From: Atribacterota bacterium
GTDB lineage: Bacteria; Atribacterota; Phoenicimicrobiia; Phoenicimicrobiales; Stramentimicrobiaceae
Reading direction: 5' to 3'
NCBI GenBank assembly: GCA_040767965.1
Contig: JAXGNR010000012.1
Location: 1 to 56,237 of the forward strand
Length of the DNA stretch: 56,237 bases
Shown in pieces: positions 7,009-20,733 of this stretch. The translations under genes were made by a program, and so were the position numbers. The notes beneath the pieces are model-generated. The model did no database searches. It saw nothing but the letters and a program-made list of their open reading frames with translations, and was not told the DNA's origin. Numbering within the stretch: the stretch's first letter is position 1; every line of letters starts with the position of its first letter.

Positions 7009-8880
7009 ATGTCAATAAAAATTGAAATAAATAATATACCGGTAGAAGTGGAAAAAGGAACAACTATTTTAAAGGCAGCAAAAGAAATTGGAATTAAAAT
7101 TCCCACTTTATGCTATTTGGAAGGTCTGCAAAACCCCGGATCTTGTCGCCTATGTCTGGTTGAAGTAGAAGGTGCAAACAACTTACTCCCTTCCTGCATA
7201 ACCGAAGTAGCTGAAGGCATGAAAATCAAGACAAATAGCAAAAGGGTCAGGCAGGCTAGAAAAATAGTATTGGAATTACTTTTAAGCTCTCATCCCTGGG
7301 AATGTAATACCTGTGATAGAAATCAGGATTGTGAATTGCAAACTTTAGCTGAAGAATATGGTATCAGAGAAGTGAGATTTCAGTCTTATAAAGTAAAATT
7401 ACCCTTAGATACCAGTACCCCGGGTATTGTCAGGGATCCCAATAAATGTATCCTGTGCCGGCGCTGTGTTACTGTCTGTCAGGAAGTACAAAAAGTATCC
7501 ACACTAGGACCTCGTTATCGCGGAATCAAAACAATCATTGGTCCTGGACAGGTTGATTTTTTATCAGATGCAGTGTGTGTACAATGCGGACAATGTGCTG
7601 CTGTCTGCCCGGTAGGCGCTATCAGTGAATGTGATGACACTGAAAAGGTATGGAATGCTATTGAAGATCCCCAAAAATATGTAGTAGTACAGACAGCTCC
7701 TTCTATCAGGGCAGCTCTGGGAGAATGTTTTGGCTTACAGCCAGGTACCCTGGTTAAAGGACGTATGGTTACTGCTTTAAGAAGATTGGGCTTTGATCAG
7801 GTTTTTGACACCAACTTCGCGGCTGATCTTACTATAATAGAAGAAGGACATGAACTACTGTCTCGCTTAAAGAAAAAATTAGTTGAAAAAGATGAAAATA
7901 CAAAACTTCCCATGTTTACTTCCTGCTCTCCGGGTTGGATAAATTATATGGAAAATTTTTATCCTGAATTAATTGATAATATTTCTACCTGTAAGTCACC
8001 ACAACAAATGTTTGGCGCTATAGCCAAAACCTATTTTGCCGATAAAATCGGTAAGAAAAAAGAGGATATGGTAGTGGTATCTATCATGCCCTGCACTGCC
8101 AAAAAGTTTGAATGTAATCGAGATGAAATGACCGATAGTGGAGTACAGGATGTGGATTATGTTCTGACTACCAGGGAATTGGGTAAGATGATTAAACGGG
8201 CAGGAATTGATTTTGTTAATTTGCCGGATGGGGAGATGGATGCCCCGTTAGGTATTTCAACAGGTGCAGCAGATATTTTTGCTAACACTGGTGGAGTTAT
8301 GGAAGCTGCCCTGCGAACTGCTTATGAAACAGTAACCGGGAGAAACTTACCTTTTGATAGATTACACATAACCCCGGTTCAGGGATTAGAAGGAGTTAAG
8401 GAAGCCCAGCTAACCATAAAAGATACATTACCAGAATGGAATTTTTTAGAAGGTGTAACATTAAAGGTAGCAGTTGCTCATGGCCTTGGAAATGCCAATA
8501 AAATAATTGAAGCTACCTCAAAAGGGGAAAAAGAATATCATTTTGTTGAAATAATGACCTGCCCGGGCGGTTGTATCGGAGGAGGAGGCCAGCCTCGTTT
8601 GACTACCGATGAAGTCAGAAAAGCCAGGATTCAGGCAATATATAAAGAAGATGAGGGTCGGGAGCTCAGAAAATCCCATGAAAATCCAGCTATTAAACAG
8701 CTGTATGATGAGTTCCTGGGAAAACCGCTGGGAGAAAAATCACATCACCTTCTTCATACGAAATATTTTGATAAGAAAAATAAAAAAGAGAAACAGGAAG
8801 ATAGAAAAATTCAAATTAGTTCACAAACAAAAAAAACAACTGTAAAGAAAAGAGATAAAGAATGCAGCATACGAACATAA
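7009..8880 (+). CDS. hydA: [FeFe]-hydrogenase group A catalytic subunit (2Fe-2S, His-ligated 4Fe-4S, 2x4Fe-4S, H-cluster)
   Basis: H-cluster motifs TSCSPGW, MPCTAKKFE, EIMTCPGGCIGGGGQP; HPWECNTC and CxxCxxCxxxC motifs. Confidence 0.95.
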   Translation: MSIKIEINNIPVEVEKGTTILKAAKEIGIKIPTLCYLEGLQNPGSCRLCLVEVEGANNLLPSCITEVAEGMKIKTNSKRVRQARKIVLELLLSSHPWECNTCDRNQDCELQTLAEEYGIREVRFQSYKVKLPLDTSTPGIVRDPNKCILCRRCVTVCQEVQKVSTLGPRYRGIKTIIGPGQVDFLSDAVCVQCGQCAAVCPVGAISECDDTEKVWNAIEDPQKYVVVQTAPSIRAALGECFGLQPGTLVKGRMVTALRRLGFDQVFDTNFAADLTIIEEGHELLSRLKKKLVEKDENTKLPMFTSCSPGWINYMENFYPELIDNISTCKSPQQMFGAIAKTYFADKIGKKKEDMVVVSIMPCTAKKFECNRDEMTDSGVQDVDYVLTTRELGKMIKRAGIDFVNLPDGEMDAPLGISTGAADIFANTGGVMEAALRTAYETVTGRNLPFDRLHITPVQGLEGVKEAQLTIKDTLPEWNFLEGVTLKVAVAHGLGNANKIIEATSKGEKEYHFVEIMTCPGGCIGGGGQPRLTTDEVRKARIQAIYKEDEGRELRKSHENPAIKQLYDEFLGKPLGEKSHHLLHTKYFDKKNKKEKQEDRKIQISSQTKKTTVKKRDKECSIRT

Positions 8881-9350
8881 AATGGATTTCAAGGACAGCC
8901 TTTTTGCTTGCTATTGCCCTGGTCTTCCAAATGGGAGGTTTTCCGCAATTTATAACAGGTCCATTAGTAAATACCGTGCTTTATCTGGCAGCGGTGATAG
9001 TTGGATGGCAGGGTGGGATTTTGATTGGTATTTTTACGCCGATTATTGCTGCTATGCGGGGGATTTTACCTCCTCCGCTAGCCCCTTTGATTCCTTTTAT
9101 TGCCCTGGGCAATGCAATACTGGTAATTTTATTTTTTTGGCTGAAATCAAAAAACAATATTCTGGCTATTATTATCGCCTCTTCAGCTAAATTTTTGATT
9201 TTAGTAAGTGCAGTAAAAATATTGGTTCAGGTTCCGCCTGCAATTGCTCAGATGATGAGTTTCCCTCAGTTAATAACTGCATTGGTAGGGGGATTTATTG
9301 CCCTTTTAATTGTGAAGATTTTTAAAAAGACTGATATTGAATTTAAATAA
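8862..9350 (+). CDS. ECF transporter S component (substrate unknown)
   Basis: 162-aa hydrophobic protein; ITGPLVNTVL, PFIALGN and PQLITAL motifs typical of S components. Confidence 0.75.
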   Translation: MQHTNIKWISRTAFLLAIALVFQMGGFPQFITGPLVNTVLYLAAVIVGWQGGILIGIFTPIIAAMRGILPPPLAPLIPFIALGNAILVILFFWLKSKNNILAIIIASSAKFLILVSAVKILVQVPPAIAQMMSFPQLITALVGGFIALLIVKIFKKTDIEFK

Positions 9351-9426: not shown

Positions 9427-10170
9427 TTAATAATGTTTTACTTCTGCATGTTCCAGGTTTTCCCAAATTAACTCATTTCTATCCTGGAATTTCTTTACCA
9501 GCAATACAGACTTGTTTTCTTTTAATACTGTTTTTACCTTGCCTTTCAGGGATACCAATTCTTCATCTGAAAGTATTTGCCCATCTTCAGTACATGCTTT
9601 ATCTATTTCCCATTTCTCGCACAGATCTTTAATTTTGAATTTGCAGGGATTTTCTAAAATAAAATGGCTTCCACGGAACCTTCCGTCATTTCCGCTAAGC
9701 CGTAATCCAGTTCCCGCCAGAGCACCAATAACACCGTCTCCGGTTCCTCCATGTTCTGTTAAGTATATGGAAAGCTCTTCTGCCAGTTGGTAGGCATCCT
9801 GCTTGGATAATTTTTTTATTTTCGCTTTTCGGCCAAAATTGATAATTCTTTCGGGATATTTCACCTCATCCGGAAATACTACACACAAGCCAGGATCTGA
9901 TTCAGGTGCTGATTCTCTTTTTAAATAGGAAATAGACAGATCGATAATCCTTTCTATTTCCTTCCTTTGAGATATTTCCCCGGCAAAGCACATCACACTA
10001 TTGTGAGAGGTATAAGGGACTGACGGGTGAACGAATAGCTGGTGCCTGGTGATGCTGTCAGCTATCCCCCATCCGTTTTCAGTAATATTTTTCCTTATTT
10101 TCTCCAGTAGATGGCCGGTACCCGGCCAATCTTTCTGATCTGTATCATCAATTGCTAATAGATATCTCAT
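9427..10170 (-). CDS. TiaS (tRNA-Ile2 agmatinylcytidine synthetase) N-terminal-like protein lacking tRNA-binding domains; function unknown
   Basis: IDDTD..GT, RHQLFVHPSVPYTSHNS..C, SDPGLCV, GDGVIGALAG resemble TiaS catalytic-domain motifs; only 247 aa, no Zn ribbon. Confidence 0.6.
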   Translation of the reverse strand: MRYLLAIDDTDQKDWPGTGHLLEKIRKNITENGWGIADSITRHQLFVHPSVPYTSHNSVMCFAGEISQRKEIERIIDLSISYLKRESAPESDPGLCVVFPDEVKYPERIINFGRKAKIKKLSKQDAYQLAEELSIYLTEHGGTGDGVIGALAGTGLRLSGNDGRFRGSHFILENPCKFKIKDLCEKWEIDKACTEDGQILSDEELVSLKGKVKTVLKENKSVLLVKKFQDRNELIWENLEHAEVKHY

Positions 10171-10178
10171 CTGTTGAT

Positions 10179-11269
10179 TTATACATCCCCTTTTCTCAAG
10201 CGCATTCCTTCACCGCTTAATATCTTTTCTATATATTCATCTGTTAAATCCCATTCATAAAAGCTGGAATAAAAATATTTTACTTCTTCCTGCATACTGA
10301 TATCTTCAAACAAATCCGGATATAGCAGTTTGGCTACACATAAAATTGCTAGAGGTGTTTCCAGGGCATTAGTGGGATGACCCCACCGGGATACCCCATT
10401 GGGCATTTTATAAACTCTTTCATTTTTTACTGCCTGCAAATCAGCCCATTGTTCATTGGTAAGAATATATTTATCTACATTCTCTTCATTGACAATAATG
10501 ACTTCTGCATCCCAGAGTAATATTTGTTCTAAACTGGCAAAGTATTTATTTTCTAAAAACTTTAAATCTGTATCCAGGAAACATTGTGGGCTCCGGCAAT
10601 TTCCAGCCATTCAGCTGCCCGGGTACCCCTAGCGTCAGTCCTGGTTGCCTCGTTAACTGAATGATATACGGTAACTCTGTCTGAAAAAGGTATTTCCTTA
10701 ATTTTTTCCTGTACTCTTTCTATGCAATAATTATAATAATCAATATATTGTCTGGCTTCTTCAACCTCACCAAGGGCTTTGCCTATCATTTCCATAGAAA
10801 ACTGGTGCTCGGCAATAGATCCATAATCAATGACCAGATAGGGAATATCAAATTGCTCTATCTGGGCAACATAGGCTTCGCTAACCGCATTTTCTCCCTG
10901 GATAAACAGAATATCACAGTCGGCCCTGGCCAGCTCTTCAATGTTAATGACACTACTTTTACTGGGGACTAAGGCATCCTTAATATTTGGAAACATTTCT
11001 GTAAAGAGAACATCTCTTTTCAGTCCATCTACGATTGCCACAATGTCAGGTCCCCGGTTCAGTAAGGCAACAGCATGGCCGGAATAGGCAAATAGGCAAC
11101 CGATTCGCTCTATTTCTTCTGGATTAGGCACTTCTACTTCTCTATCAAAACAATCAATAACAATATTCTTTTCTGTAATTGCAGTCTCATCTGCTATAAT
11201 TGTTATGCTAAATGCAAATAATATACAAAAAATCATACTGAAAAAGATAATGAAATTTCTTTTAAACAT
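10179..11269 (-). CDS. Type II (Fe-siderophore/B12-class) ABC substrate-binding protein, split by one frameshift near 10576
   Basis: Signal peptide, DCFDREVEVP..IERI, INIEEL, SLEQILLWDAEVII, W..LQAVKNERVY; two overlapping ORFs are joined by restoring one C. Confidence 0.85.
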
Positions 11270-12092
11270 ATACTAAAGACTCCTTTTCTGAAATTTTTAT
11301 AGGGATGATATATTTCTGCTTTTTTAGATCATCCAAATCATAATCAATAATTTTGCATTCTATTTTAAATATTTTACTAATATTCTCTTTAGTCAACACC
11401 TCTCCAGGCCGTCCATAGATGGCAAATTTTTTTTCATTAAGCATGGCAGTAAAAGTTGTTAATCCATTATTCTCAAAATAAAAAGCATGATTCAGGTAAT
11501 GAGTTGCCAGAATAATAGATAAATTCTTTTTTTTGGCTAACTGCCTGGTTACCTCCAGAACAGTTAAACTGTTCTGGAAATCCAGATAAGTTGTGGGCTC
11601 ATCCATAATCATAATTTTTGATTGCTGAGCCAGTGCTCTGGCTATCATAACCAGCTGTCCTTCCCCACCGCTTAATTCAGTATATGGCCTGTGCATTAAA
11701 TGCTTTATACCTACAGTCTCAATGGCTTCATGAGAGGTTGAAACATCCTCTCTACCAGGAGACCCGAACATTCCAATATGGGAAGCTCTTCCCATTAGAA
11801 CAATTTCCTCAACTGTATATGGAAATGTTTTTTTATGTATTTGAGGGACATAAGCAATTGTTCGGGCAATTTCTCTTGCTTTTAGATAATTGATATTTTT
11901 CCCCTGTAATAATATTTCACCTTTTTTCAATGGGAAAATCCCCATAATGCAATCCAGGAGTGTTGTTTTTCCTGAACCATTAGGCCCTATCAGGCATATA
12001 ACTTCTCCGGCTTCCATCTGGAAATTAATATTTTCCAGAACATTGTGACGGCCATAACCAAAACCAGCTTCTTTTACTTCTAATAAAGACAT
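11262..12092 (-). CDS. ABC transporter ATPase, FecE/BtuD family
   Basis: GPNGSGKTT, LSGGE, MDEPTTYLD. Confidence 0.9.
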   Translation of the reverse strand: MSLLEVKEAGFGYGRHNVLENINFQMEAGEVICLIGPNGSGKTTLLDCIMGIFPLKKGEILLQGKNINYLKAREIARTIAYVPQIHKKTFPYTVEEIVLMGRASHIGMFGSPGREDVSTSHEAIETVGIKHLMHRPYTELSGGEGQLVMIARALAQQSKIMIMDEPTTYLDFQNSLTVLEVTRQLAKKKNLSIILATHYLNHAFYFENNGLTTFTAMLNEKKFAIYGRPGEVLTKENISKIFKIECKIIDYDLDDLKKQKYIIPIKISEKESLVYV

Positions 12093-12096
12093 CCTA

Positions 12097-13134
12097 CTAC
12101 CATCCCTTTCCCTTGGTCTTTTTTAAAAGATAGACAAAGAAGGGTCCGCCGATTAAGGCAGTAAGTATTCCCAGGGGTATTTCAGCCCCAATCAAAGTAC
12201 GACTTAAATTGTCCACCACAATCATAAAGAAAGCTCCCAGAAAAAAGCTGGCTGGAATAAGAATACGGTTATCATTACCGACCATCATCCGACCAATATG
12301 AGGCATAACTAAACCCACCCAGCCGATATTACCACTGACGCTAATCGCTCCAGCAGTAGCCAGCGAAGCACATAAAACCATAATAATTTTCGTCAGGATA
12401 TTATTAATGCCCAGTGCCTGGGCTTCTTTATCCCCCATTGACAGGACATTAATCTGCCAGCGCAGGGCAATTAATCCGAGAACACCAATAGAAATGGGTA
12501 TAATAGAAAAGTAGATATCTTGATACTGGGCAGTAGCCAGACTACCCATCAGCCAGAAGGTAATTGATGGTAATTTTTCAAAAGGGTCTGCTACAAATTT
12601 TGCAAAAGAAACCAGGGCAGAAAATATTGAAGACACAACCACACCACCTAACACCAGTGTAATTGTTGGAGTGGAATGGTAAATCTGTCCAATAAAAAAG
12701 CTCATTGCTACTGCTAACAAGGCAAAACCAAAGGCATAAAAATAAACCATATAATTCTGACCATATAGAATAATTGCCAGCACTGCACCAAAACTTGCTC
12801 CGGAGCTGACTCCCAAAATACCTGAACTTACCAAAGGATTCCGAAATAATCCCTGAAAGGCAGCCCCGCTAATAGCCAGGCTGCCTCCTACCATTGCACC
12901 CAGAATAGCCCTGGGCAATCTTATTTTCCAGACCACAGTGTTATAAATATTCGGAAAATCCTGATTAACCTGAGGATTAACAGTTACTCTGAATACAGCC
13001 ATGATGTCAGCCCAAGTCAAGGGATACCTGCCTATAAAAAGTGAGAAAAAAATCCCGATAAAAGGTAAAATGATAATTAATATCAGGAGAACACTATTCT
13101 TTTTTAATTTTAAAGCAGAAAAAATTTTTTGCAT
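12097..13134 (-). CDS. FecCD/BtuC-family ABC permease
   Basis: IRLPRAILGAMVGGSLAISGAAFQGLFRNPL, GNIGWVGLVMPH, EIPLGILTALIGGPFF. Confidence 0.92.
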   Translation of the reverse strand: MQKIFSALKLKKNSVLLILIIILPFIGIFFSLFIGRYPLTWADIMAVFRVTVNPQVNQDFPNIYNTVVWKIRLPRAILGAMVGGSLAISGAAFQGLFRNPLVSSGILGVSSGASFGAVLAIILYGQNYMVYFYAFGFALLAVAMSFFIGQIYHSTPTITLVLGGVVVSSIFSALVSFAKFVADPFEKLPSITFWLMGSLATAQYQDIYFSIIPISIGVLGLIALRWQINVLSMGDKEAQALGINNILTKIIMVLCASLATAGAISVSGNIGWVGLVMPHIGRMMVGNDNRILIPASFFLGAFFMIVVDNLSRTLIGAEIPLGILTALIGGPFFVYLLKKTKGKGW

Positions 13135-13166: not shown

Positions 13167-13640
13167 TTATTTTATTGCCCCTAAGGCCATAAATTCCAAT
13201 ATCAGTTCTTCACCTAATTTTTCACCGCTTTTTGATTCTAATTCAGGAAAAATAATAATCTGGTAAGTCTTTAAAGATTCTATACCTTCTTTTATAATCA
13301 GGGTAATATTATTTCTCTTTTCTCTTTCAATCTGGTCATCAGCCATTTCAATTTCTACAGCTACTTCACTACCGCCTTCTTTGTTAATAACCTTGAAGCA
13401 TTGACTATTATTTTCACTGACTTCCATGTTAACTACATTCTTGCTGAAAGTGAATTCAATAACAATGTTTCTTTGTCCTTCATCATTTAATTCATCAGTC
13501 ATACGAAATGCTTCCAAAACCAGAGGATTCTTTCCACTGTCCTGTGCCATAGCAGAAATAGTTCCTAAGGTAAACACAACAACCAGAATAACAGCCAAAA
13601 TTAAATTTGATTTTTTTATACTCTGTAAATTTAAAAACAT
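13167..13640 (-). CDS. Secreted Ig-like (Big_5/SbsA-type) domain protein
   Basis: Signal peptide ending AMA; FTFSKNVVN...DDQI...KSGEKLG beta-rich pattern; GGAGG RBS before ATG 13640. Confidence 0.6.
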   Translation of the reverse strand: MFLNLQSIKKSNLILAVILVVVFTLGTISAMAQDSGKNPLVLEAFRMTDELNDEGQRNIVIEFTFSKNVVNMEVSENNSQCFKVINKEGGSEVAVEIEMADDQIEREKRNNITLIIKEGIESLKTYQIIIFPELESKSGEKLGEELILEFMALGAIK

Positions 13641-13670
13641 AAAAACCTCCAAATATTTTTTTGATTAAAA

Positions 13671-13702
13671 TAAAAAATCCTGTACTTTTCCCCGTACAGG
13701 AT
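13671..13702 (-). terminator. Riboswitch expression-platform intrinsic terminator
   Basis: ATCCTGTAC-ggggaaaa-GTACAGGAT followed by a U-tract, between the aptamer and the first gene. Confidence 0.8.
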
Positions 13703-13710
13703 ATAATTAT

Positions 13711-13803
13711 CTCTTCTTTCCAAACACGGGGGGCTCAGCAATTTCTCACTAAACCTGATGGTTAGCTTTCATGGAAAACCTTTAGAAAAACTAACTCGAA
13801 GAA
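13711..13803 (-). ncRNA. Moco/Wco riboswitch (Moco RNA motif), P3-lacking variant
   Basis: Minus strand CTTCGA-GTTAGTTTT-TCTAAA..CATGA-AAGCTAAC-CATC-AGGTTTAGTGA GAAA TTGCTGAGCC-CCCCGTGTTTGGAAAGAAGAG: GAAA tetraloop, receptor-like motif, conserved CCCGTRTTTGGAAAG, no P3. Confidence 0.85.
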
Positions 13804-13833
13804 AATTGTACAGTATTTAATTTAATAAAAGTT

Positions 13834-13862
13834 ATTATACACAATTAGTTATTTTAGTGCAA
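13834..13862 (-). promoter_or_regulatory. Sigma70 promoter for the riboswitch operon
   Basis: TTGCAC-17 bp-TATAAT about 30 nt upstream of the aptamer. Confidence 0.7.
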
Positions 13863-13904
13863 ATAGATGAACCGGATATAGCCTATATATCATCAGGCAA
13901 TCCA

Positions 13905-13962: not shown

Positions 13963-15054
13963 TTATTTTTCAATAACTATACTGGCTAATGATTGAGGAA
14001 GATTGTTTGAAAAATCCACAACTGGTGGATTTATGACTACCTGTCCGGTATTTTCCATTATTCTCTGGCCCTGGGGACTAAGAATGAATTCCATCAGTCT
14101 GATTGCCTCTTGTGGATTTGGGGCATTATTGGGAATTGTTATTCCGTAGATAATAGGTAAAATGTCATAATCCGGATTGACTGATAAAAACCTTTTAAAA
14201 GCAAGTTTGACTTTCATATTCGAGCATAATGCTTTAAATTCCTCAGAACCCAGATTTATCTCCGGTGGAAACTCCAGAAAATTAACCTCATGCTGCCGGG
14301 CAACACTTTTGTATTCAAAACCATAATCCAGATCACCTGACTGAATAGGAAAAAGTAATTTGATACTGGAATCCCGGATGGCAAGTCTCTCCGCTTCCAA
14401 AATTTCCGGAATTAGAATTGTGTAGCTGTCTTCATTTTTTTCCACCTTAATAGGATACGAGAATCTTCCAATTACATTATGCAGTAAATCTTTTTCCTGA
14501 TAAAAAATTTCTGCTAATTTTAAAGCCATCAATGACCTGTAGCCACAGGCATCAAATCGTGGATCTGAAATTCCAACTTTTACCTCTGGTCTGGAAAGAA
14601 TTTGATACCAATTATCGGTATTGATCTCATCATTGTATTTGCTTTGGGAAGTGTAAGCTAATCCCAGAATGTTTGTTCCAAACTGAATACACCAGCTGGC
14701 ATAAGGTTGCTGGCTTTCCGGAATCATTGTTTCGTACATCAGTTTTGGAATCAACGAATAGTCAGCTACTGCAACAATATCTGCAATAGGCTCTCCTGAA
14801 AAAGCTGGTAATTCGATTACATGCCGGATAACCTGAATACTGCCATGCCCTTCAACCAGGACATCAATCCCTGGATTTTCTGCCTCAAAGGCCTTTTCTA
14901 TAGCCCCAAAAGGAACTAACAAACTTCCGGCTGCCTGGATTTTCACAGATATCTTTTCCTGGTCCTGGCAAAAACCAGATAAAAATAGGCTGATTATCAG
15001 TATAATTAAGCAAGCTCCAAAGACTGTTTTCCTTAACAGTTTTATGGTCATCAT
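13963..15054 (-). CDS. wtpA: Tungstate/molybdate ABC substrate-binding protein, WtpA class
   Basis: AAGSLLVPF..E..F, EGHGSIQVIR, AVADY, SDPRFDACGYRS, FEYKSVA, IIYGITIP. Confidence 0.85.
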   Translation of the reverse strand: MMTIKLLRKTVFGACLIILIISLFLSGFCQDQEKISVKIQAAGSLLVPFGAIEKAFEAENPGIDVLVEGHGSIQVIRHVIELPAFSGEPIADIVAVADYSLIPKLMYETMIPESQQPYASWCIQFGTNILGLAYTSQSKYNDEINTDNWYQILSRPEVKVGISDPRFDACGYRSLMALKLAEIFYQEKDLLHNVIGRFSYPIKVEKNEDSYTILIPEILEAERLAIRDSSIKLLFPIQSGDLDYGFEYKSVARQHEVNFLEFPPEINLGSEEFKALCSNMKVKLAFKRFLSVNPDYDILPIIYGITIPNNAPNPQEAIRLMEFILSPQGQRIMENTGQVVINPPVVDFSNNLPQSLASIVIEK

Positions 15055-15102
15055 TCCTCTCCTGTTAAATAGAGAATTTTAAAAAGTTTTGGCTATTTGC
15101 CT

Positions 15103-16077
15103 TTAGGGAAAAATAACTTTAATTTCTTTTATTTGACCTACCTGCTCTTTCCCGGTTAAACCATCTCCTACCAACCTTAATGGCCAGGAATTTTCCGGTA
15201 AAGATTCTCCGTCTAGTTTATATGCCACAATGATATTATTCCTTCGGGCAATAGATGAGATTGGAAGTGTTGCACTAAATCCGTCTTCAGCAATAATTTC
15301 TACTTCATATCCGTCCTGGACCAATGAATCATTAAAGGCTTTTCCTTCATGAGGATTATCATCATCTACCCGTCCTACCAGTAGCCACAGGGGAATTCCT
15401 TCCCATTCTCTACCTTTATCATCAACATATCTGGTACCATGACAACCTTCGGCTGAACCAGATTCAAAAGTAGCCCGATCAATATTTTCATCCCGTGCAC
15501 CTTTCAACTGTAAAACCCAATCCTTAGGAGCAGGAACCAGCTCTATCTGTTCAACCCACTTACTCCACCAGTGACCGTCTGTTACCTGATTCTTCTCACT
15601 AAGAATAGCCAGTCTTAGGGGACCACCCAGCTCAAAGGTCATTGCTTCTCCATCAGTCATATAAGCCAGAATCATATGCAAATCACCATGGGGCACTTCA
15701 TTTAACGAAACAGGGTCATAGGTAATAAAATCATTTTCGGTTACTTGTTTATAACTGAAAGTCATGGCATAACCGTCTCTGGAAATGATTTTAACAGCTG
15801 TATCAGGGTTAATGCCTCCGACCATATCGCATATTTCCAGAACAGATACTCCTTTTAGTTCAAAAGGACCCTCAATAGCACCGGTGCTGCGCATTCTACC
15901 TCCCCAGCCTTCTAAAGCAGGTAAATCCATAATTTCCTCCAGAGTTAATGTTTTTACTGTATCACCGGATGTTATTTTCAGGGCAACATCTTCCTGAGCT
16001 GCCAAAACATTGCCTATTGTTAATGATAGCCCAAATATGACCAGAAAAATTATTGTTTTTAATTTATTAATCTTCAA
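15103..16077 (-). CDS. Secreted protein with two molybdopterin-binding (sulfite oxidase/MsrP-like) domains
   Basis: Duplicated pattern KGVSV..DGY..ILAY..DG..GPLRL..KWVEQI / WEGIPL..DGF..IVAY..DG..PLRLV..QIKEI; Sec-type signal peptide, no RR motif. Confidence 0.7.
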   Translation of the reverse strand: MKINKLKTIIFLVIFGLSLTIGNVLAAQEDVALKITSGDTVKTLTLEEIMDLPALEGWGGRMRSTGAIEGPFELKGVSVLEICDMVGGINPDTAVKIISRDGYAMTFSYKQVTENDFITYDPVSLNEVPHGDLHMILAYMTDGEAMTFELGGPLRLAILSEKNQVTDGHWWSKWVEQIELVPAPKDWVLQLKGARDENIDRATFESGSAEGCHGTRYVDDKGREWEGIPLWLLVGRVDDDNPHEGKAFNDSLVQDGYEVEIIAEDGFSATLPISSIARRNNIIVAYKLDGESLPENSWPLRLVGDGLTGKEQVGQIKEIKVIFP

Positions 16078-16161
16078 TTTATTTCCTCCTAGTTTTTTTA
16101 TATTTTAAAGATCGTGGTAATTTTTTCAGTTCAAATATAGATATAAATAATCCTCCTCTCT

Positions 16162-16965
16162 TTATATGTTTTCATTTCTCATGATTAAAATTCTTAATAT
16201 AATAAAGATAATAAGTGAAATCATTACTCCCAGGGCAGCTATAGGGCGGGCATAGAAAAGTCCAAAATTAAAGCGGTCAGATACCAAGACCGGCAATGTC
16301 TTTCCACTCTTCCCTAAAAAAGATACATTATAAGCAATGATCATTACTGCACCAAACTCACTTACACCTCTTCCCCACATAAGAATACAGCCGGAATAAA
16401 TGCTTTTTAAGGCTAAAGGAAGAGATATATACCAGAATACCTGCCAGTGTGAAGCGCCATAAGTATAGGCGGTTTCTTCCAGTTCAATATCTATTGACTT
16501 AAAACCTTCCTTAACTGAATCAATCAAAAAAGGAATACTTACAAACATCATTGCCAGGACAACTCCATAGAATGTCTGGAAAAATTCAATTCCGAAAAAA
16601 CTAAAAACTCTCCCCAGGAAATAATTACGGCCAAAAACAAACAAGAGAGCTATGCCGGCTGCAGAATGGGGAATAACAATGGGAATATCAATAACGGCTT
16701 CCAGTATCCCTTTACCAAAAAAATTGTGTCTGGCTAGCAGATAAGCCAATGGTATCCCCAGTAAAAATCCCAACATTGTTGCAAGCAGTGCTGCAATCAA
16801 TGTTAAACAGATAGAGTGATTCACTTCTGGATCTTTTACTGTATTACACAATACAGATAATGGAGTATAAAAAATTGTTTTTAATGGTGGAAGAAGTATA
16901 AACAGGATTGTCATGATACCAATTAAAATAAAGATTAGATAGAACAAATCAACATTTTTTCTCAT
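16162..16965 (-). CDS. wtpB: Tungstate/molybdate ABC permease (WtpB/ModB)
   Basis: PLAYLLAR..F.GK, IDIPIVIPHSAAGIAL, EETAYTYGAS, RGVSEFGA. Confidence 0.85.
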   Translation of the reverse strand: MRKNVDLFYLIFILIGIMTILFILLPPLKTIFYTPLSVLCNTVKDPEVNHSICLTLIAALLATMLGFLLGIPLAYLLARHNFFGKGILEAVIDIPIVIPHSAAGIALLFVFGRNYFLGRVFSFFGIEFFQTFYGVVLAMMFVSIPFLIDSVKEGFKSIDIELEETAYTYGASHWQVFWYISLPLALKSIYSGCILMWGRGVSEFGAVMIIAYNVSFLGKSGKTLPVLVSDRFNFGLFYARPIAALGVMISLIIFIILRILIMRNENI

Positions 16966-17040
16966 TTTAGCAAGTAACCCTTTATTCCTTTCTACACCAA
17001 CGAATATTTATACTTTCCATTTATTTGCTATTCACCAGGA

Positions 17041-17097
17041 AATAAAAAAACAGCACTTTTTGACATTAGTAACAACAAGTTACATCAAAAAGTACTG
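17041..17097 (-). terminator. Riboswitch expression-platform terminator
   Basis: CAGTACTTTTTGA...TCAAAAAGTGCTG followed by TTTTTTT. Confidence 0.75.
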
Positions 17098-17119
17098 CCC
17101 TATATTTAAATTTCATCTT

Positions 17120-17233
17120 TCTCTCCTTTCCAAATACGGGAGGTTTAAACATTTCTATTTAAACCCTTAAGACTTTTGAGGTCTTGCGTTTACCGGTCAT
17201 AGAAAACCCTTAGGCCAGGTAAATCGAAGAGAC
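17120..17233 (-). ncRNA. Moco riboswitch (Moco RNA motif), P3-containing variant
   Basis: Minus strand CTCTTCGA-TTTACCTGG-CCTAAG..TATGA-CCGGTAAA-cgc-AAGAC ctcaaaa GTCTT (P3)-GGTTTAAATA GAAA TGTTTAAACC-TCCCGTATTTGGAAAGGAGAG. Confidence 0.9.
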
Positions 17234-17284
17234 TTATTTATAAATTATAAAAATTCTATTTCCCTGTTAAAAGTAATTTAATTT

Positions 17285-17621: not shown

Positions 17622-18431
17622 TTAAATACGCAATAGAAGATTCCCAAAAAAAAGAAAGAGCAATAATACCCCTACTTCATTTAGTTCATTAACCGCTCCT
17701 ATAATGTCACCACAAATACCCTGTATCTTTGCAAAAGAATAAAAGATTAACAGATAAGTAATAATTGCTGAAAATACCAGAAAGTAAAATGTGAAATATG
17801 ATAATAGATAAAAGCTGCATATCACAGCAAAGAAAGTAGCTATCAATAACTCTTTCCCTCCCAAATATATAGTGAACATGCGCGATAAAGAGTTATCAGC
17901 AGAGGCAGGTTTCCCTGAATAGCCAGCCAGCACCATTGACCATCTTCCAATAACCGGAGCCAATAGCAATGCTTCTGATTTATAAGCAGCAGGTAAATTG
18001 TTTATTAACAGCAGTTTTAAAATAATCAACAAGATTAAGCCAATGGCTCCCTTTGCCCCTATAGCCCCATCTTTCATTATACGGATAATCTCCTGCTGGT
18101 TTTTGCCACCGGAGAATCCATCTACCATATCAGCAAAACCCTCCAGGTGCAGTCCTCCGCTTAAAAAGATCCAGATTGCAAGAATAATTCCATTGACTAA
18201 CAAAATATCAAAGTGAGTAAATCCAAGTAAATAATTTACACCCACCAGAATAAAACCAATAAAAATACCAACTATCGGAAAAAATACACTGGATTTTGAT
18301 AAATCCTCTTTTATATAATCCTGTTCTTGTTTTGGCTGCTCCTTATTAGGAGTGGAAAATAAAAAGCTAACAGGCAAGACTGTTAAAAAAGAAAAGGCCA
18401 GAAGAAACCTTCTACACAAGTTTTTCATCAT
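17622..18431 (-). CDS. cobS: Adenosylcobinamide-GDP ribazoletransferase (cobalamin synthase)
   Basis: GGLHLEGFADMVDG, IMKD..IGAKG, GICGDIIGA. Confidence 0.92.
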   Translation of the reverse strand: MMKNLCRRFLLAFSFLTVLPVSFLFSTPNKEQPKQEQDYIKEDLSKSSVFFPIVGIFIGFILVGVNYLLGFTHFDILLVNGIILAIWIFLSGGLHLEGFADMVDGFSGGKNQQEIIRIMKDGAIGAKGAIGLILLIILKLLLINNLPAAYKSEALLLAPVIGRWSMVLAGYSGKPASADNSLSRMFTIYLGGKELLIATFFAVICSFYLLSYFTFYFLVFSAIITYLLIFYSFAKIQGICGDIIGAVNELNEVGVLLLFLFFGNLLLRI

Positions 18432-18987
18432 TATTCCCTTTAATTAAAATCGGAATACCGGCCACCATCAGATATACTTTAGCAGAATTGGCTGCAATAA
18501 ATTGATTAGCTTTACCTAAGGTATCACGGAAAAAACGCCCCAGCGGATTTACAGGAACTAATCCCAACCCTACTTCATTTGATACAATAATTAATGTAGC
18601 TGAACTTTTTAATGATTGGTTGATAATTCCTTCTACCTGCATCATAATGTTTTCATTTATTTCCTGGTTTTCTGAACCTTCCTGATAGTTGGTCATAAGA
18701 TTAGAGACCAAAAGAGTGAGGCAATCAAGTAATATCACATCTACCTGTTGACTAATTTTCTTAATAATTGGGAGAATATTATAGGGTTCCTCATATGTTT
18801 GCCAATCGGTAGGGCGGTGAGCGCGATGCTTGTTTATCCTCTCATGCATCTCTTTATCTAAAGCCTGTGCAGTGGCAATAAAGGCAACCTTTCCACCATT
18901 GTCGCGAGCTATTTTTTCTGCAAAAGAGCTTTTCCCACTGCGAACTCCTCCGGTAATCAGAATTATATTTTTATTTGAATAAATCAT
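18412..18987 (-). CDS. cobU: Adenosylcobinamide kinase/guanylyltransferase
   Basis: GGVRSGKSSFAE, EMHERI..HR..R, LLDCLTL, VSNEVGLG..P, FRDTLG. Confidence 0.95.
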   Translation of the reverse strand: MIYSNKNIILITGGVRSGKSSFAEKIARDNGGKVAFIATAQALDKEMHERINKHRAHRPTDWQTYEEPYNILPIIKKISQQVDVILLDCLTLLVSNLMTNYQEGSENQEINENIMMQVEGIINQSLKSSATLIIVSNEVGLGLVPVNPLGRFFRDTLGKANQFIAANSAKVYLMVAGIPILIKGNNDEKLV

Positions 18988-19028
18988 TCTTTTTCCTGCT
19001 GATAATACAAATAATAGTTAAGTAACTG

Positions 19029-20090
19029 CTATTCTTTTAAATCATCAAATGTGGCCATTTTGTTAAGTAGCTTAAATCCTGTTTCAATAAAATTCATACC
19101 ATAAACAGCCCCGGTGCCTTCACCTAAATGCATTTTTAAATCAAAAATCGGTCTTTTCTGCAGATAAGATAAAGCAACAAGATGTCCCTTTTCCTTTGAA
19201 CAATGACTGGCAAACAGATAATCTTTTACTATGGGAACAAGGTGCACTGCCAGTAAGGCGCAGGCTCCTGATATTAAACCATCCATTACCACAGGCACTC
19301 TTCTGGCTGCCGCAGCCAGTATGCAACCGACCAGTCCTCCTATCTCAAATCCACCTACTTTGGCCAGAACATCCATTGGATCTTTGGGGTTTGGCTGATT
19401 TACAGTAATTGCTTTCTTGATTATAGCGGTTTTATGCTCAACTTCTTCAGGAGCAAGTCCGGTACCCATGTCTACTGTATCTTCAATTTTTGCTCCAGTT
19501 AAGAGACTGATAATAGCACTGCTGGCAGTGGTATTACCTATACCCATTTCACCTAATCCAATCAGGTTAATTTCCTGACAGGCATAGCTTTCTTCAAAGA
19601 CCTCATAACCGGTTAGAATAGATTTCTCAGCCATTTCAGGAGTCATAGCAGGACCGTTAACCATATTAAAAGTGCCATGAGCAATTTTCCTTTTATTTAA
19701 TCCTTTTAATTCTTTGATGTCTGCAAATTCCCCCTTAACACCAATATCTGTAATGGCTACCTCTATACCGAAATGTTCAGTTAAGATATTTATGGCAGCA
19801 CCGCCATTTAAAAAATTTAAAACCATCTGGCGGGTAATTTCAGCAGGATAAGCACTGATTTTTTCAACTGTTACTCCATGATCGGCTGCCATTAAAAAAA
19901 CTACTTTTCTCTTTAAAGGTGGATTTACTGTTCCATAAACTCCGGCTGCCAGGGCAATTATTTTCTCTAATTCGCCCAGGCTCTTGGCAGGTTTGGTTAA
20001 ATTATCAAATTTTTTTATAGTTATCTCTTCTAAATCTTTATTAACTGGCATAATTTTTTGAATTATTTTTTCAATTTTCTTATTTCTCAA
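19029..20090 (-). CDS. cobT: Nicotinate-nucleotide-DMB phosphoribosyltransferase
   Basis: LTKPAKSLG, AADHGV, GEMGIGNTT, LGEGTGA. Confidence 0.95.
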   Translation of the reverse strand: MRNKKIEKIIQKIMPVNKDLEEITIKKFDNLTKPAKSLGELEKIIALAAGVYGTVNPPLKRKVVFLMAADHGVTVEKISAYPAEITRQMVLNFLNGGAAINILTEHFGIEVAITDIGVKGEFADIKELKGLNKRKIAHGTFNMVNGPAMTPEMAEKSILTGYEVFEESYACQEINLIGLGEMGIGNTTASSAIISLLTGAKIEDTVDMGTGLAPEEVEHKTAIIKKAITVNQPNPKDPMDVLAKVGGFEIGGLVGCILAAAARRVPVVMDGLISGACALLAVHLVPIVKDYLFASHCSKEKGHLVALSYLQKRPIFDLKMHLGEGTGAVYGMNFIETGFKLLNKMATFDDLKE

Positions 20091-20733
20091 TTGAGCCAGC
20101 CTTTTCTTTTTGAAATTTTAGATGGGCTACATCATTTACCGAACTAACATAAAAACCACTTTCCTTTTCAAATTTCAATATGTTTAAAGCAGTAGATTCC
20201 TGTCTGATGTGCCATATATTTTTAATTGGGATTTCAAGTGCTAAGGCAATAATCATTCTTGTTACTCCGCCATGACAAACAATAATTATTGTTTTTTCTT
20301 TGTTTTCTTCATAATGATCCGCAATTACTTTATCTAAAGCTGATTTAACTCTTTTTTGTAAATCAAAAACACTTTCTCCGCCTGAGAGTGGTGAATCAGG
20401 TTGATTCCACCATCCGGGTGAAATACTTTCTCCTATTTTCTGATTATATTCTTCAAGCTTTAATCCTTCCCATACTCCAAAATGAATTTCCCTAAAACCT
20501 GGTTCTATGGATAATGGTGTTTCTCGATTCTGTAACACAATTTTTGCTGTATTGACAGCTCTTTTCAAATCACTACTATAAGCAGCATCAATTTTCTCCC
20601 CACTTAAACGCTTGCCTAACTGTTCAGCCTGCCAGATACCTTTTTCAGTTAATTCAACATCCTGGTGGCCTGAGAATCTTCTTTCAACATTACTTTGTGT
20701 TTCACCATGCCTTATTACCAAAAATTTCAACAT
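20080..20733 (-). CDS. cobC: Alpha-ribazole phosphatase (histidine phosphatase)
   Basis: RHGET, SSDLKRA, REIHFGVWEG, CHGG; operon context. Confidence 0.85.
   Translation of the reverse strand: MLKFLVIRHGETQSNVERRFSGHQDVELTEKGIWQAEQLGKRLSGEKIDAAYSSDLKRAVNTAKIVLQNRETPLSIEPGFREIHFGVWEGLKLEEYNQKIGESISPGWWNQPDSPLSGGESVFDLQKRVKSALDKVIADHYEENKEKTIIIVCHGGVTRMIIALALEIPIKNIWHIRQESTALNILKFEKESGFYVSSVNDVAHLKFQKEKAGSIEK

Follow-up and report, generated by a model that had tools for sequence, protein, structure and literature searches.

Proteins with the TiaS kinase (TCKD) fold have been characterized as archaeal tRNA(Ile2) 2-agmatinylcytidine synthetases (TiaS; PDB 3AMT, 3AMU, 3AU7, 4RVZ, 5XOB and 3U02), which hold the tRNA through their FLD, OB-fold and zinc-ribbon domains. 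In the accessible part of a 2026 survey, this fold is described as confined to extremophilic archaea (PMC13397572). On the side of transport, the MolBC-A system (HI1470-HI1472) of Haemophilus influenzae is presented, in the available portion of its description, as a type II ABC importer for molybdate/tungstate, and that portion makes no mention of a TiaS-like partner (PMC4031551). The residues holding the oxyanion in MolA are given in the available part of a preprint as Y114, K221, R264 and Y301 (bioRxiv 10.64898/2026.10.15.759412). A second group of comparable systems is found in Eubacterium limosum, whose fetABC1 and fetABC2 operons, according to the portion of the report at hand, encode FecCD-type 'Fe ABC' transporters behind P3-less RF01055 riboswitches followed by a terminator, with FetABC1 being induced by tungsten limitation (PMC11725836). 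Loss of the P3 stem in RF01055 characterizes the riboswitch type proposed, in the accessible text of two studies, to sense the tungsten cofactor (PMC2408646, PMC11725836).

The locus described here lies in a window of 56,237 nucleotides, the whole stretch of DNA that was analysed, from an Atribacterota bacterium. The last gene of an operon within this window (9427..10170, minus strand) encodes a 247-aa TiaS-kinase-like protein, called TIAS throughout this work. The DDTD, PYTSHN and GxGVIGALA motifs named in the original prediction are all borne out by this ORF, in which they correspond to I7-D8-D9-T10-D11, P52-Y53-T54-S55-H56-N57 and G144-D145-G146-V147-I148-G149-A150-L151-A152-G153. The ORF is not a chance one, since 6841 of 7707 candidate proteins match it at E<=0.001, mostly over 100% of its length and with sizes of 242-267 aa; an index-free search further revealed matches to 757 cluster representatives. 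An AF2 model of TIAS was obtained with pLDDT 94.6 and pTM 0.91. A single-sequence search of the PDB retrieved no TiaS and returned chance rows only (E 0.28), and hence a profile search was needed. With the TIAS profile, residues 1-155 matched the TiaS structures 3amt, 3au7 and 4rvz at E ~2e-13 and 3u02 at E 6.8e-14. Foldseek aligned the model with 3amt at E 3.7e-11 and with 4rvz at an rmsd of 2.5 over 159 columns, and VIA-align gave Z 22.7 to 3amt_A (rmsd 1.9 A, 155 aligned residues), the next unrelated chain reaching Z 7.5. The Pfam model TiaS_TCKD (PF22641) scores 26.3 bits on TIAS, with a gathering threshold of 27, and its precomputed label is present on many close homologues. By the profile and structure comparisons, residues 1-155 clearly constitute a TiaS kinase (TCKD) fold, as had been predicted. 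The TCKD-like domain as delimited by profile, Foldseek and VIA-align (residues 1 to ~160; 9691..10170, minus strand) carries IDDTD, T18, TRHQL, PYTSHNS, GSDPG and GxGVIGALAG.

Identity between TiaS and TIAS is only 20-23%, and what is common to both are the IDDTD, PY-T--N, PG and GxG-IGALA motifs, R42 and the position of T18. At residue 18, the position of TiaS autophosphorylation, the 51 aligned TIAS sequences have T in 45 cases and S in five. In the same alignment D8, H43, N57, G146 and G149 are each conserved in 51/51 and D9, T10 and D11 each in 50/51; the conservation of the DDTD motif points to a putative use of ATP. The family also has invariant polar residues of its own, namely H43, Q44, S55, H56, S58, K117, D162 and R164. 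For the first six, the aligned TiaS sequences show no equivalent; the GNDGR run at 160-164 lies outside the stretch aligned with TiaS (residues 1-155). The NCBIfam TiaS model (NF040849) reaches 32.5 of the 600 bits set as its cutoff, aligned over no more than positions 1-154 of its 422, and by Pfam and NCBIfam TIAS is without the FLD, OB and zinc-ribbon domains of TiaS, ending at residue 247 with a different C-terminal domain. The earlier description of TIAS as stand-alone and devoid of tRNA-binding modules therefore holds, but that of a mere catalytic domain does not quite, as a further conserved, family-specific domain occupies residues ~163-247 (9430..9684, minus strand). Neither this domain nor the place of the gene at the end of an importer operon had been noted in the original prediction. 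This domain of ~85 residues is predicted to be beta-rich with one helix and had pLDDT 85.1 when modelled separately with 60 sequences. Compared with solved folds, it gave no Foldseek match at E<=0.001 (rows at E>=0.38), and its best VIA-align score against 48161 chains was Z 2.3, to ubiquitin-like domains. The Foldseek rows themselves, comprising anthrax lethal factor and others at TM ~0.2, are noise. A further relative is methanogenesis marker protein 11 (TIGR03280), a family specific to methanogens for which we know of no function. Its C-terminal half (135-282 of 292) matches TIAS 3-156 with E 1.8e-12, better than the TiaS model does, yet at 47 bits, where the cutoff is 255.8, and its N-terminal half is missing from TIAS.

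TIAS belongs to a large, bacterial and uncharacterised family, which, unlike archaeal TiaS, occurs patchily and in bacteria, with its genes lying in operons for Mo/W uptake. Records of homologues include those of Natronincola ferrireducens, Clostridium polyendosporum and Neobacillus. Ten longer homologues were found, two of them fused to DAO and a BFD-type [2Fe-2S] domain and eight without a Pfam family. Protein atlas clusters carry only 'hypothetical' or 'DNA-binding' as names, some homologues in public records are named TiaS, which for such bacterial proteins is misleading, and a search of the open literature returned no description of the bacterial family. A scan of genome contigs with the single TIAS protein identified one locus.

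The operon in the window reads, from 5' to 3', as promoter, P3-less Moco riboswitch, terminator, Ig-like protein, MolB-like permease, ATPase, MolA-like binding protein and TIAS, with its five genes overlapping or separated by gaps of <=32 nt, and the entire arrangement is kept in a relative at 80% identity. All elements are on the minus strand. A sigma-70-like promoter match (13834..13863; TTTGCA-18-TATAAT, 10 of 12 positions, a consensus match only) precedes the aptamer of the Moco family (13697..13813), which scores 62.5 bits with the RF01055 covariance model against a gathering score of 36; the riboswitch invoked by the original prediction is thus real and heads the same operon as TIAS. Model positions 58-73, corresponding to P3, are deleted in its alignment, and from this absence we propose that the riboswitch is of the predicted tungsten-cofactor type. 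Adjoining the aptamer, a sequence scan revealed a terminator-like hairpin with a T-run after it (13677..13702; 9-pair stem, then TTTTTATTTT), the likely expression platform. The first gene (13167..13652) encodes a small secreted or membrane-anchored Ig-like (Big_5-type) protein with an N-terminal hydrophobic segment. Pfam gave no match for this copy, which clusters with Big_5-matching homologues and with larger forms containing SLH, fn3 and Shr-like_HID domains. It is followed by a FecCD-family type II ABC permease (12097..13134; Pfam FecCD E 5.6e-88), an ABC transporter ATPase of MolC/BtuD type (11262..12092; Pfam ABC_tran E 1.2e-33) and a MolA-like substrate-binding protein (10179..11269), the stop codon of which lies 8 nt ahead of the TIAS start codon. 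In this assembly the binding-protein gene has lost one base near 10576/10577 and thereby falls into two frames, 10562-11269 and 10179-10610, both of which match Pfam Peripla_BP_2; DNA alignment reveals the missing base. Five relatives, L001 among them, have the gene intact, with 363 aa, and in four public runs every contig over the site has an extra base, suggesting that the frameshift is not general. RNA-library contigs on this operon cover 10354-10890 only, outside the TIAS gene.

The importer finds its best solved relatives among molybdate/tungstate systems. The permease matches MolB (2nq2, HI1471) with E 5.4e-68 and 232.8 bits, followed by HmuU with 171 bits and BtuC with 136 bits, and the binding protein matches best 4ovk, a structure with unknown ligand (E 3.5e-30), and second, over the full length, MolA (3psa; E 1.4e-24). 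MolBC-A and the operon in the window share a Mo/W context, to judge from the available portion of the MolBC-A description (PMC4031551), and the latter adds a surface Ig-like protein, a TiaS-like enzyme and riboswitch control. Its likeness to fetABC1 and fetABC2 extends to the FecCD-type importer, the P3-less riboswitch and the terminator, and those operons are read, in the part of the report available, as encoding iron importers (PMC11725836). The MolA residues Y114, K221, R264 and Y301 as given in the partly available source align to A128, T216, E263 and H298 in the intact L001 binding protein, so that 0/4 are kept in this phmmer comparison, which is alignment-dependent and employs a numbering offset of 21 deduced here; hence the cargo of the binding protein may not be the free oxyanion.

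Association with uptake systems is not restricted to the window. In 5/5 other TIAS-bearing genomes of the phylum, the binding-protein gene is directly upstream of TIAS. Of a set of 79 distant loci, encoding homologues with 42-50% identity to TIAS, 54 have a neighbour on the contig, and in 18 of these the gene next upstream encodes a MolA-like binding protein. A cassette of the window type, or else an uptake system of ECF or TonB type, is found again beside these homologues. Within <=8 kb, the 79 loci contain FecCD permeases (15), TonB-dependent receptors (11), ECF-type modules (CbiQ in 5, a putative S component in 7) and Mo/W genes, i.e., ModA-like (5), MOSC (4), the MOT1 molybdate transporter (3) and MoSto-like amino-acid kinases (3), and a ~70-aa cysteine-rich acidic protein is encoded after the TIAS gene in 7/53 loci. 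In 14/79 loci, in addition to the window, a riboswitch of the Moco family stands at the head of the TIAS operon or immediately before TIAS; 35 loci have none and 30 are cut by the contig end, these counts including hand corrections for L003, L004 and L059 and the near-duplicates L007 and L022. P3 is absent in 13 of 15 aligned riboswitches, and the two with P3 head a neighbouring wtpA operon, not TIAS. The link of TIAS to molybdenum/tungsten via the riboswitch is hence robust across distant loci.

The host organism is tungsten-dependent, its genome giving eight matches to the AOR family. Its Moco pathway is complete, and MoaA, MoaC, MoaB/MogA and two MoeA proteins are encoded behind another riboswitch. 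The presence of MoaB/MogA and two MoeA led to rejection of TIAS as a substitute for the MPT adenylyltransferase, and that of MoaA and MoaC to rejection of the host as a cofactor auxotroph. TIAS was found in 6/72 genomes of the phylum, and among genomes of the same family AOR genes are present in 20/20 and TIAS in only six, so that TIAS is not obligatory for the maturation of tungsten enzymes; a tracking of AOR enzymes by TIAS was likewise rejected. Consistent with the earlier statement that TilS performs the tRNA job in bacteria, the host has its own TilS (TIGR02432, 189.3 bits vs a cutoff of 93.6; C-terminal domain TIGR02433, 35.7 vs 20.2). The cysteine-rich mini-protein, the MoSto-like kinase and the FAD oxidoreductase were absent in a search of the host genome, which gave weak matches to unrelated ABC/kinase genes.

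Taking these data together, we consider it somewhat better than an even chance that TIAS catalyses an ATP-dependent accessory reaction in the cytoplasm that contributes to the acquisition of tungsten/molybdenum, and is not a tRNA enzyme. This reading is built on the fold, the motif conservation, the operon structure, the riboswitch and the recurrent linkage to uptake, from which we infer that ATP is used, and also the kind of chemistry, its substrate and which way the flow runs, as follows. When the cofactor is scarce, the P3-less riboswitch and the terminator would let the uptake operon be expressed, and when it is plentiful the operon would be switched off. The importer would bring tungstate/molybdate, or a bound form, into the cytoplasm, where TIAS would act on what is delivered, likely by transferring a phosphoryl or adenylyl group onto an oxygen atom, and the metal so treated would become available for tungsten/molybdenum cofactor synthesis. 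A parallel is provided by cobalamin uptake, in which importers are paired with an ATP-dependent adenosyltransferase. There, a TonB receptor with a type II ABC or ECF importer and feedback by a cofactor riboswitch are likewise combined with a cytoplasmic, ATP-using finishing enzyme, although this is analogy only, as the adenosyltransferase has no sequence or fold relation to TIAS. Several observations weigh against such an acquisition step: the MolA oxyanion residues of the partly available source are all replaced in the binding protein, surface Big_5/SLH proteins, TonB receptors and ECF modules go more typically with vitamins or complexed nutrients than with small anions, 35/79 loci have no riboswitch, AOR is present in 20/20 family genomes and TIAS in six, and the binding-protein gene is frameshifted in this assembly, albeit not generally as public contigs suggest.

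Some of these observations speak for cofactor salvage, in which the importer would take up a pterin (molybdopterin, cPMP or Moco/Tuco from other cells) that TIAS phosphorylates or adenylylates for re-use, much as in the cobalamin pairing above. The architectures beside TIAS, TonB with type II ABC, ECF and surface capture, are those for vitamins and complexed nutrients, none of the four oxyanion residues reported in the available MolA text is retained, and the binding-protein family is rich in invariant Trp, Tyr, Arg and His. The target of TiaS chemistry is the oxygen of a ring carbonyl, a group also present in pterins, and feedback by the finished cofactor suits salvage as well as metal uptake. 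However, the host makes its own molybdopterin (MoaA, MoaC, MoaB and two MoeA), neighbours elsewhere act at the level of the metal (ModA-like, MOT1, WtpA and the MoSto-like kinase), the permease has its closest solved relative in the oxyanion importer MolB and no pterin-binding domain was detected; salvage is considered unlikely. Of the candidates in the original prediction, neither a pterin nor the MCD cytosine gains support here relative to the oxyanion, or to an imported complex. The partner may also be a small protein in place of the small molecule that had been predicted, and TIAS as a regulatory protein kinase would control tungsten storage or uptake through autophosphorylation at T18 or through a partner such as the four-cysteine protein, the MoSto-like storage protein or the transporter. 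This proposal is in line with the hydroxyl side chain kept at residue 18 in 50/51 sequences, with the cysteine-rich protein following the gene in 7/53 loci and with the MoSto-like kinases in 3/79 loci. We nevertheless regard it as quite unlikely, with the mini-protein, the MoSto-like gene and the fused oxidoreductase not found in the host, where the TIAS gene is yet intact and conserved, and with many family-specific invariant polar residues that would suggest a defined pocket for a small ligand.

In a further reading, the FecCD-type system would import an iron complex that TIAS processes, its co-regulation with the tungsten cofactor being due to the richness of tungsten enzymes in iron. According to the accessible part of the E. 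limosum report, the ABC systems behind Tuco riboswitches are called iron transporters and the iron content is higher on lactate, but the same text has FetABC1 induced by tungsten limitation (PMC11725836). NCBIfam relates the binding protein weakly to iron/siderophore binding proteins, whereas the best solved relatives are MolB and MolA (233 vs 171 bits for the permease, 90 vs <=50 bits for the binding protein). Moreover, the other neighbours are Mo/W genes, and shut-off of the operon at plentiful cofactor suits tungsten supply better than iron supply, making the iron explanation highly improbable. Even less credence is given to an RNA-modifying enzyme that would, as TiaS does, modify a cytidine in tRNA or in some other RNA, with the C-terminal domain binding the RNA. 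The sole characterised relatives of TIAS are indeed tRNA enzymes, but the FLD, OB and zinc-ribbon domains are lacking, the NCBIfam TiaS score is far from its cutoff (32.5 bits vs 600), TilS is encoded in the host and genomic linkage is consistently with uptake systems and Mo/W riboswitches. A role in tRNA(Ile) modification in particular is very unlikely, because the gene is patchy, occurring in 6/72 genomes of the phylum.

The TIAS family, whose thousands of bacterial members are repeatedly tied to uptake systems and tungsten-cofactor riboswitches, is a tangible candidate for a step missing from current accounts of how tungsten is chosen over molybdenum, delivered and inserted. The TiaS kinase fold is widespread in bacteria, in a non-RNA role if TIAS acts as favoured here, and the data suggest that FecCD-type 'iron' importers behind Tuco riboswitches have possibly been misread. 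A more specific version of the acquisition step, which we put forward only tentatively and rate as improbable, is that TIAS would be the first enzyme to activate the tungsten (or molybdenum) oxyanion itself, phosphorylating or adenylylating tungstate as it leaves a dedicated importer. If this were true, the metal would be trapped in the cell and an activated, metal-selective species would be handed to the cofactor-insertion machinery. The position of TIAS in its operon points to an undescribed step in the acquisition of tungsten by anaerobes.

The ORF at 9427-10170 (-), encoding 247 residues, is a real, conserved gene, and its product carries the three motifs of the original prediction exactly as claimed, with IDDTD at residues 7-11, PYTSHN at 52-57 and GDGVIGALAG at 144-153. 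When 5.8 billion proteins were searched through a word index, 6841 of the 7707 candidates matched at E<=0.001, and the best 120 of these 6841 are nearly all 242-267 aa long and cover the whole query, while 1.84 billion cluster representatives, compared without an index, yielded 757 matches (500 at E<=1e-10, 130 at E<=1e-30). Databases call these homologues 'hypothetical protein', with the name TiaS in a few records, and a description of this bacterial TiaS-like family was not found in the literature searched. D8, H43, N57, G94, A126, G146, G149 and L156 are invariant in a 51-sequence alignment, and most other motif residues are conserved in at least 90% of these sequences. Three related loci (L034, L050, L054) contain two or three tandem paralogous copies. 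Two homologues (P0170 and P0253) are fusions with an FAD oxidoreductase (DAO) that bears a BFD-like [2Fe-2S] domain, and a DAO-type oxidoreductase with such a domain is also encoded 3' of the TiaS-like gene in locus L071 (10962-12461).

Scored against existing models, the protein reaches 26.3 bits with Pfam TiaS_TCKD, the kinase domain of archaeal TiaS (threshold 27), and matches NCBIfam methanogenesis marker 11 (47 bits, cutoff 255.8) and NCBIfam TiaS (32.5 bits, cutoff 600, model positions 1-154 of 422) weakly and partially. The family profile aligns residues 1-155 in every case with the TiaS structures 3AMT, 3AU7 and 4RVZ (E ~2e-13) and 3U02 (E 6.8e-14). Using an alignment-based AlphaFold model (pLDDT 94.6, pTM 0.91), Foldseek placed TiaS entries at ranks 1-9 (best 3amt, E 3.7e-11; 4rvz rmsd 2.5 A over 159 columns), so that the predicted N-terminal fold proved to be that of the TiaS TCKD and not an unrelated one. 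VIA-align against 48161 representative chains gave 3amt_A at Z 22.7 (rmsd 1.9 A, 155 residues) and 3u02_A at Z 15.4, with the next chain at Z 7.5. Together, the profile, Foldseek and VIA-align matches identify the N-terminal domain as a TCKD domain. The C-terminal residues 163-247, modelled alone from 60 homologues (pLDDT 85.1), gave no Foldseek match at E<=0.001 and no matching fold in VIA-align (best Z 2.3). The protein therefore has none of the TiaS tRNA-binding modules, yet with this C-terminal domain, private to the family, it is more than a bare catalytic domain; the proposed stand-alone catalytic domain without tRNA-binding modules thus holds for the missing modules and fails for the bare domain.

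According to the HMMER alignment, TiaS and the TiaS-like protein have in common IDDTD, R42, P-Y-x-T-x-x-N, P-G and GxG-IGALA; the acidic motif is intact in a TiaS-type nucleotide-cleaving fold. T18 corresponds to the autophosphorylation position of TiaS. Residues H43, Q44, S55, H56, S58 and K117 are private to the bacterial family, and a strongly conserved GNDGR run (160-164) lies outside the TiaS-aligned stretch. Judged by fold and motifs, the protein would work like the TiaS kinase domain, but it departs from TiaS in every other point compared, namely domain set, equivalog score and AUA-decoding role. A 2026 survey restricts the TiaS superfamily to extremophilic archaea and lists its chemistry as PPi-type cleavage (PMC13397572), and PMC11938285 describes a kinase specific for both RNA and protein.

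The TiaS-like gene is the last of five tightly packed genes on the minus strand, preceded by those for a secreted 161-aa Ig-like protein (13652-13167), a FecCD permease (13134-12097), an ABC ATPase (12092-11262) and a Peripla_BP_2 binding protein lying in two frames (11269-10179), past whose stop it starts by 8 nt. Given this spacing it is likely co-transcribed with the importer, and the lack of a signal sequence points to a cytoplasmic product. Ahead of the five genes lie a promoter-like site (13863-13834, -), an RF01055 aptamer of the Moco family (13813-13697, -; 62.5 bits) lacking the P3 stem (model positions 58-73 deleted), and a terminator-like hairpin with a T-run (13702-13677, -), and the operon is predicted to be controlled by this P3-less riboswitch and terminator. 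The 161-aa protein belongs to a surface-protein family marked by a Big_5 Ig-like domain and by a 'MADDQ' stretch that is conserved. Its large relatives additionally possess SLH anchors as well as fn3 and Shr-like haem-receptor domains (L021 3256-6033, L030 2946-6158, L025 10860-12872); such domains suggest cell-surface cargo capture in bacteria without an outer membrane. Convergent with the TiaS-like gene, at 7009-9350 (+), a gene for the large subunit of an [FeFe]-hydrogenase shares 19 nt with one for a 162-aa membrane protein that resembles ECF S-components (29.2 bits against a cutoff of 30.7).

Loss of P3 has been associated with tungsten-cofactor sensing by Regulski et al. 2008 (PMC2408646) and in a 2024 E. 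limosum study (PMC11725836). A second Moco-family riboswitch retaining P3 (17241-17107, -; 78.4 bits) heads an operon (13963-17241, -) for an ABC permease, a secreted Oxidored_molyb-domain protein and the tungstate-binding protein WtpA (TIGR03730, 291.5 bits), within which no ATPase gene was found. A P3-containing, 'Moco-type' switch before the WtpA gene is at odds with a simple P3 rule. Directly upstream of these Mo/W loci, a cobalamin lower-ligand/salvage cluster encodes CobS, CobU, a CobT-type phosphoribosyltransferase and a histidine phosphatase (17622-20733, -).

The importer appears MolBC-A-like by sequence comparison. The nearest solved structure to the permease is HI1471, the MolB permease of Haemophilus influenzae (E 5.4e-68, 232.8 bits; HmuU 171 and BtuC 136 bits), and the intact 363-aa binding protein of L001, an 80%-identity relative with both riboswitches and all genes in the same order, matches 4OVK of unknown ligand (E 3.5e-30), MolA/HI1472 over its full length (E 1.4e-24) and 4PAG (E 6.6e-20), with iron- and nickel-binding proteins far behind (E 1.5e-12 or weaker). 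MolBC-A is described as a type II importer of molybdate/tungstate (PMC4031551). The four oxyanion contacts given for MolA in a 2026 preprint (bioRxiv 10.64898/2026.10.15.759412), Y114, K221, R264 and Y301, align to A128, T216, E263 and H298; none of the four is conserved, and hence the cargo may be other than the free oxyanion. Invariant positions occupied by Trp, Tyr, Arg or His are numerous among the 18 distinct binding proteins linked to the TiaS-like gene. Compared with three relatives (L001, L084, L086), the window's binding-protein gene is one base short near 10576/10577, its frames overlapping at 10562-10610. Since the extra base is present in all contigs that span this position in four public runs, one of which, from an RNA library, is otherwise near-identical, the frameshift is probably a strain-specific lesion or an assembly error.

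Beyond the window, 80 metagenomic loci (39-52% identity) and L001 made a set of 81, with a recognisable TiaS-like gene in 79. The immediate upstream neighbour, where present on the contig, is a MolA-like binding protein in 18/54 loci and, second commonest among named ones, a putative ECF S-component in 4/54. Within 8 kb of the gene in these 79 loci occur FecCD permeases (15), Big_5/SLH surface proteins (12), TonB-dependent receptors (11), ExbB (7), ExbD (6), CbiQ/EcfT (5), ModA-like proteins (5), HTH plus PBP-like regulators (5), MOSC (4), MOT1 (3) and MoSto-like amino-acid-kinase proteins (3). Linkage of the gene to Mo/W genes and to uptake machinery of three types is thus recurrent. With a covariance model derived from 15 riboswitches, 21 of 87 sources gave matches, and a riboswitch heads the operon of, or directly precedes, the TiaS-like gene in 14/79 loci plus the window, with none in 35 and a contig end cutting a further 30 (L003, L004 and L059 corrected by hand; L007 and L022 near-duplicates). 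It lies immediately 5' of the gene itself in L002, L003, L004, L009, L015, L059 and L060. P3 is missing in 13 of the 15 aligned riboswitches, and both that have it belong to the wtpA operon. In several loci (L015 11229-13982, L033 11413-14168, L068 2977-5711) the gene adjoins an ECF-type importer that consists of a fused double ATPase, a T component resembling CbiQ, and a ~185-aa membrane protein without Pfam family, which may be a new S component. A ~70-aa acidic cysteine-rich protein is the immediate downstream neighbour in 7/53 loci; it bears the conserved motif SCYNCRYRRW...F.C (L060 10741-10968, L003 1686-1904, L034 2232-2447, L071 10771-10983 and others) and is absent from the window's genome.

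Within the phylum, six of the 72 genomes carry the TiaS-like gene, and all six belong to a single family (5/19 besides the window's genome). All five other carriers have the binding-protein gene directly upstream, and four show the ATPase, the fifth locus being cut. The window's genome (98% complete, 2.33 Mb) has one copy, eight AOR-family and six RF01055 matches, TilS, and an operon that has a riboswitch at its head and encodes two MoeA, MoaA, MoaC/MOSC and MoaB; with TilS and these Moe and Moa proteins present, the gene replaces neither TilS nor a known cofactor-synthesis step. AOR genes occur in 20/20 genomes of the family with or without the TiaS-like gene, which is therefore dispensable for these tungsten enzymes and has an accessory function travelling with its importer.

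At slightly better than an even chance, we infer that this function is an ATP-dependent modification of what the importer delivers, letting tungsten (or molybdenum) enter cofactor synthesis at low cofactor. Pterin salvage is an unlikely reading of the same operon, and slightly less likely still is a regulatory protein kinase targeting itself or small partners. RNA modification, the activity of TiaS on tRNA(Ile2), has the smallest chance of all. An accessory to iron uptake is scarcely more probable than that: it follows how the 'Fe ABC' operons located downstream of Tuco riboswitches in E. limosum were interpreted, but one of these operons is induced by tungsten limitation, which tungsten supply fits at least as well.

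The 2024 study (PMC11725836) regards the E. limosum FecCD-type ABC operons that follow P3-less riboswitches as iron importers. Because of that induction and by analogy with the operon of the window, they may instead be tungsten-related importers.
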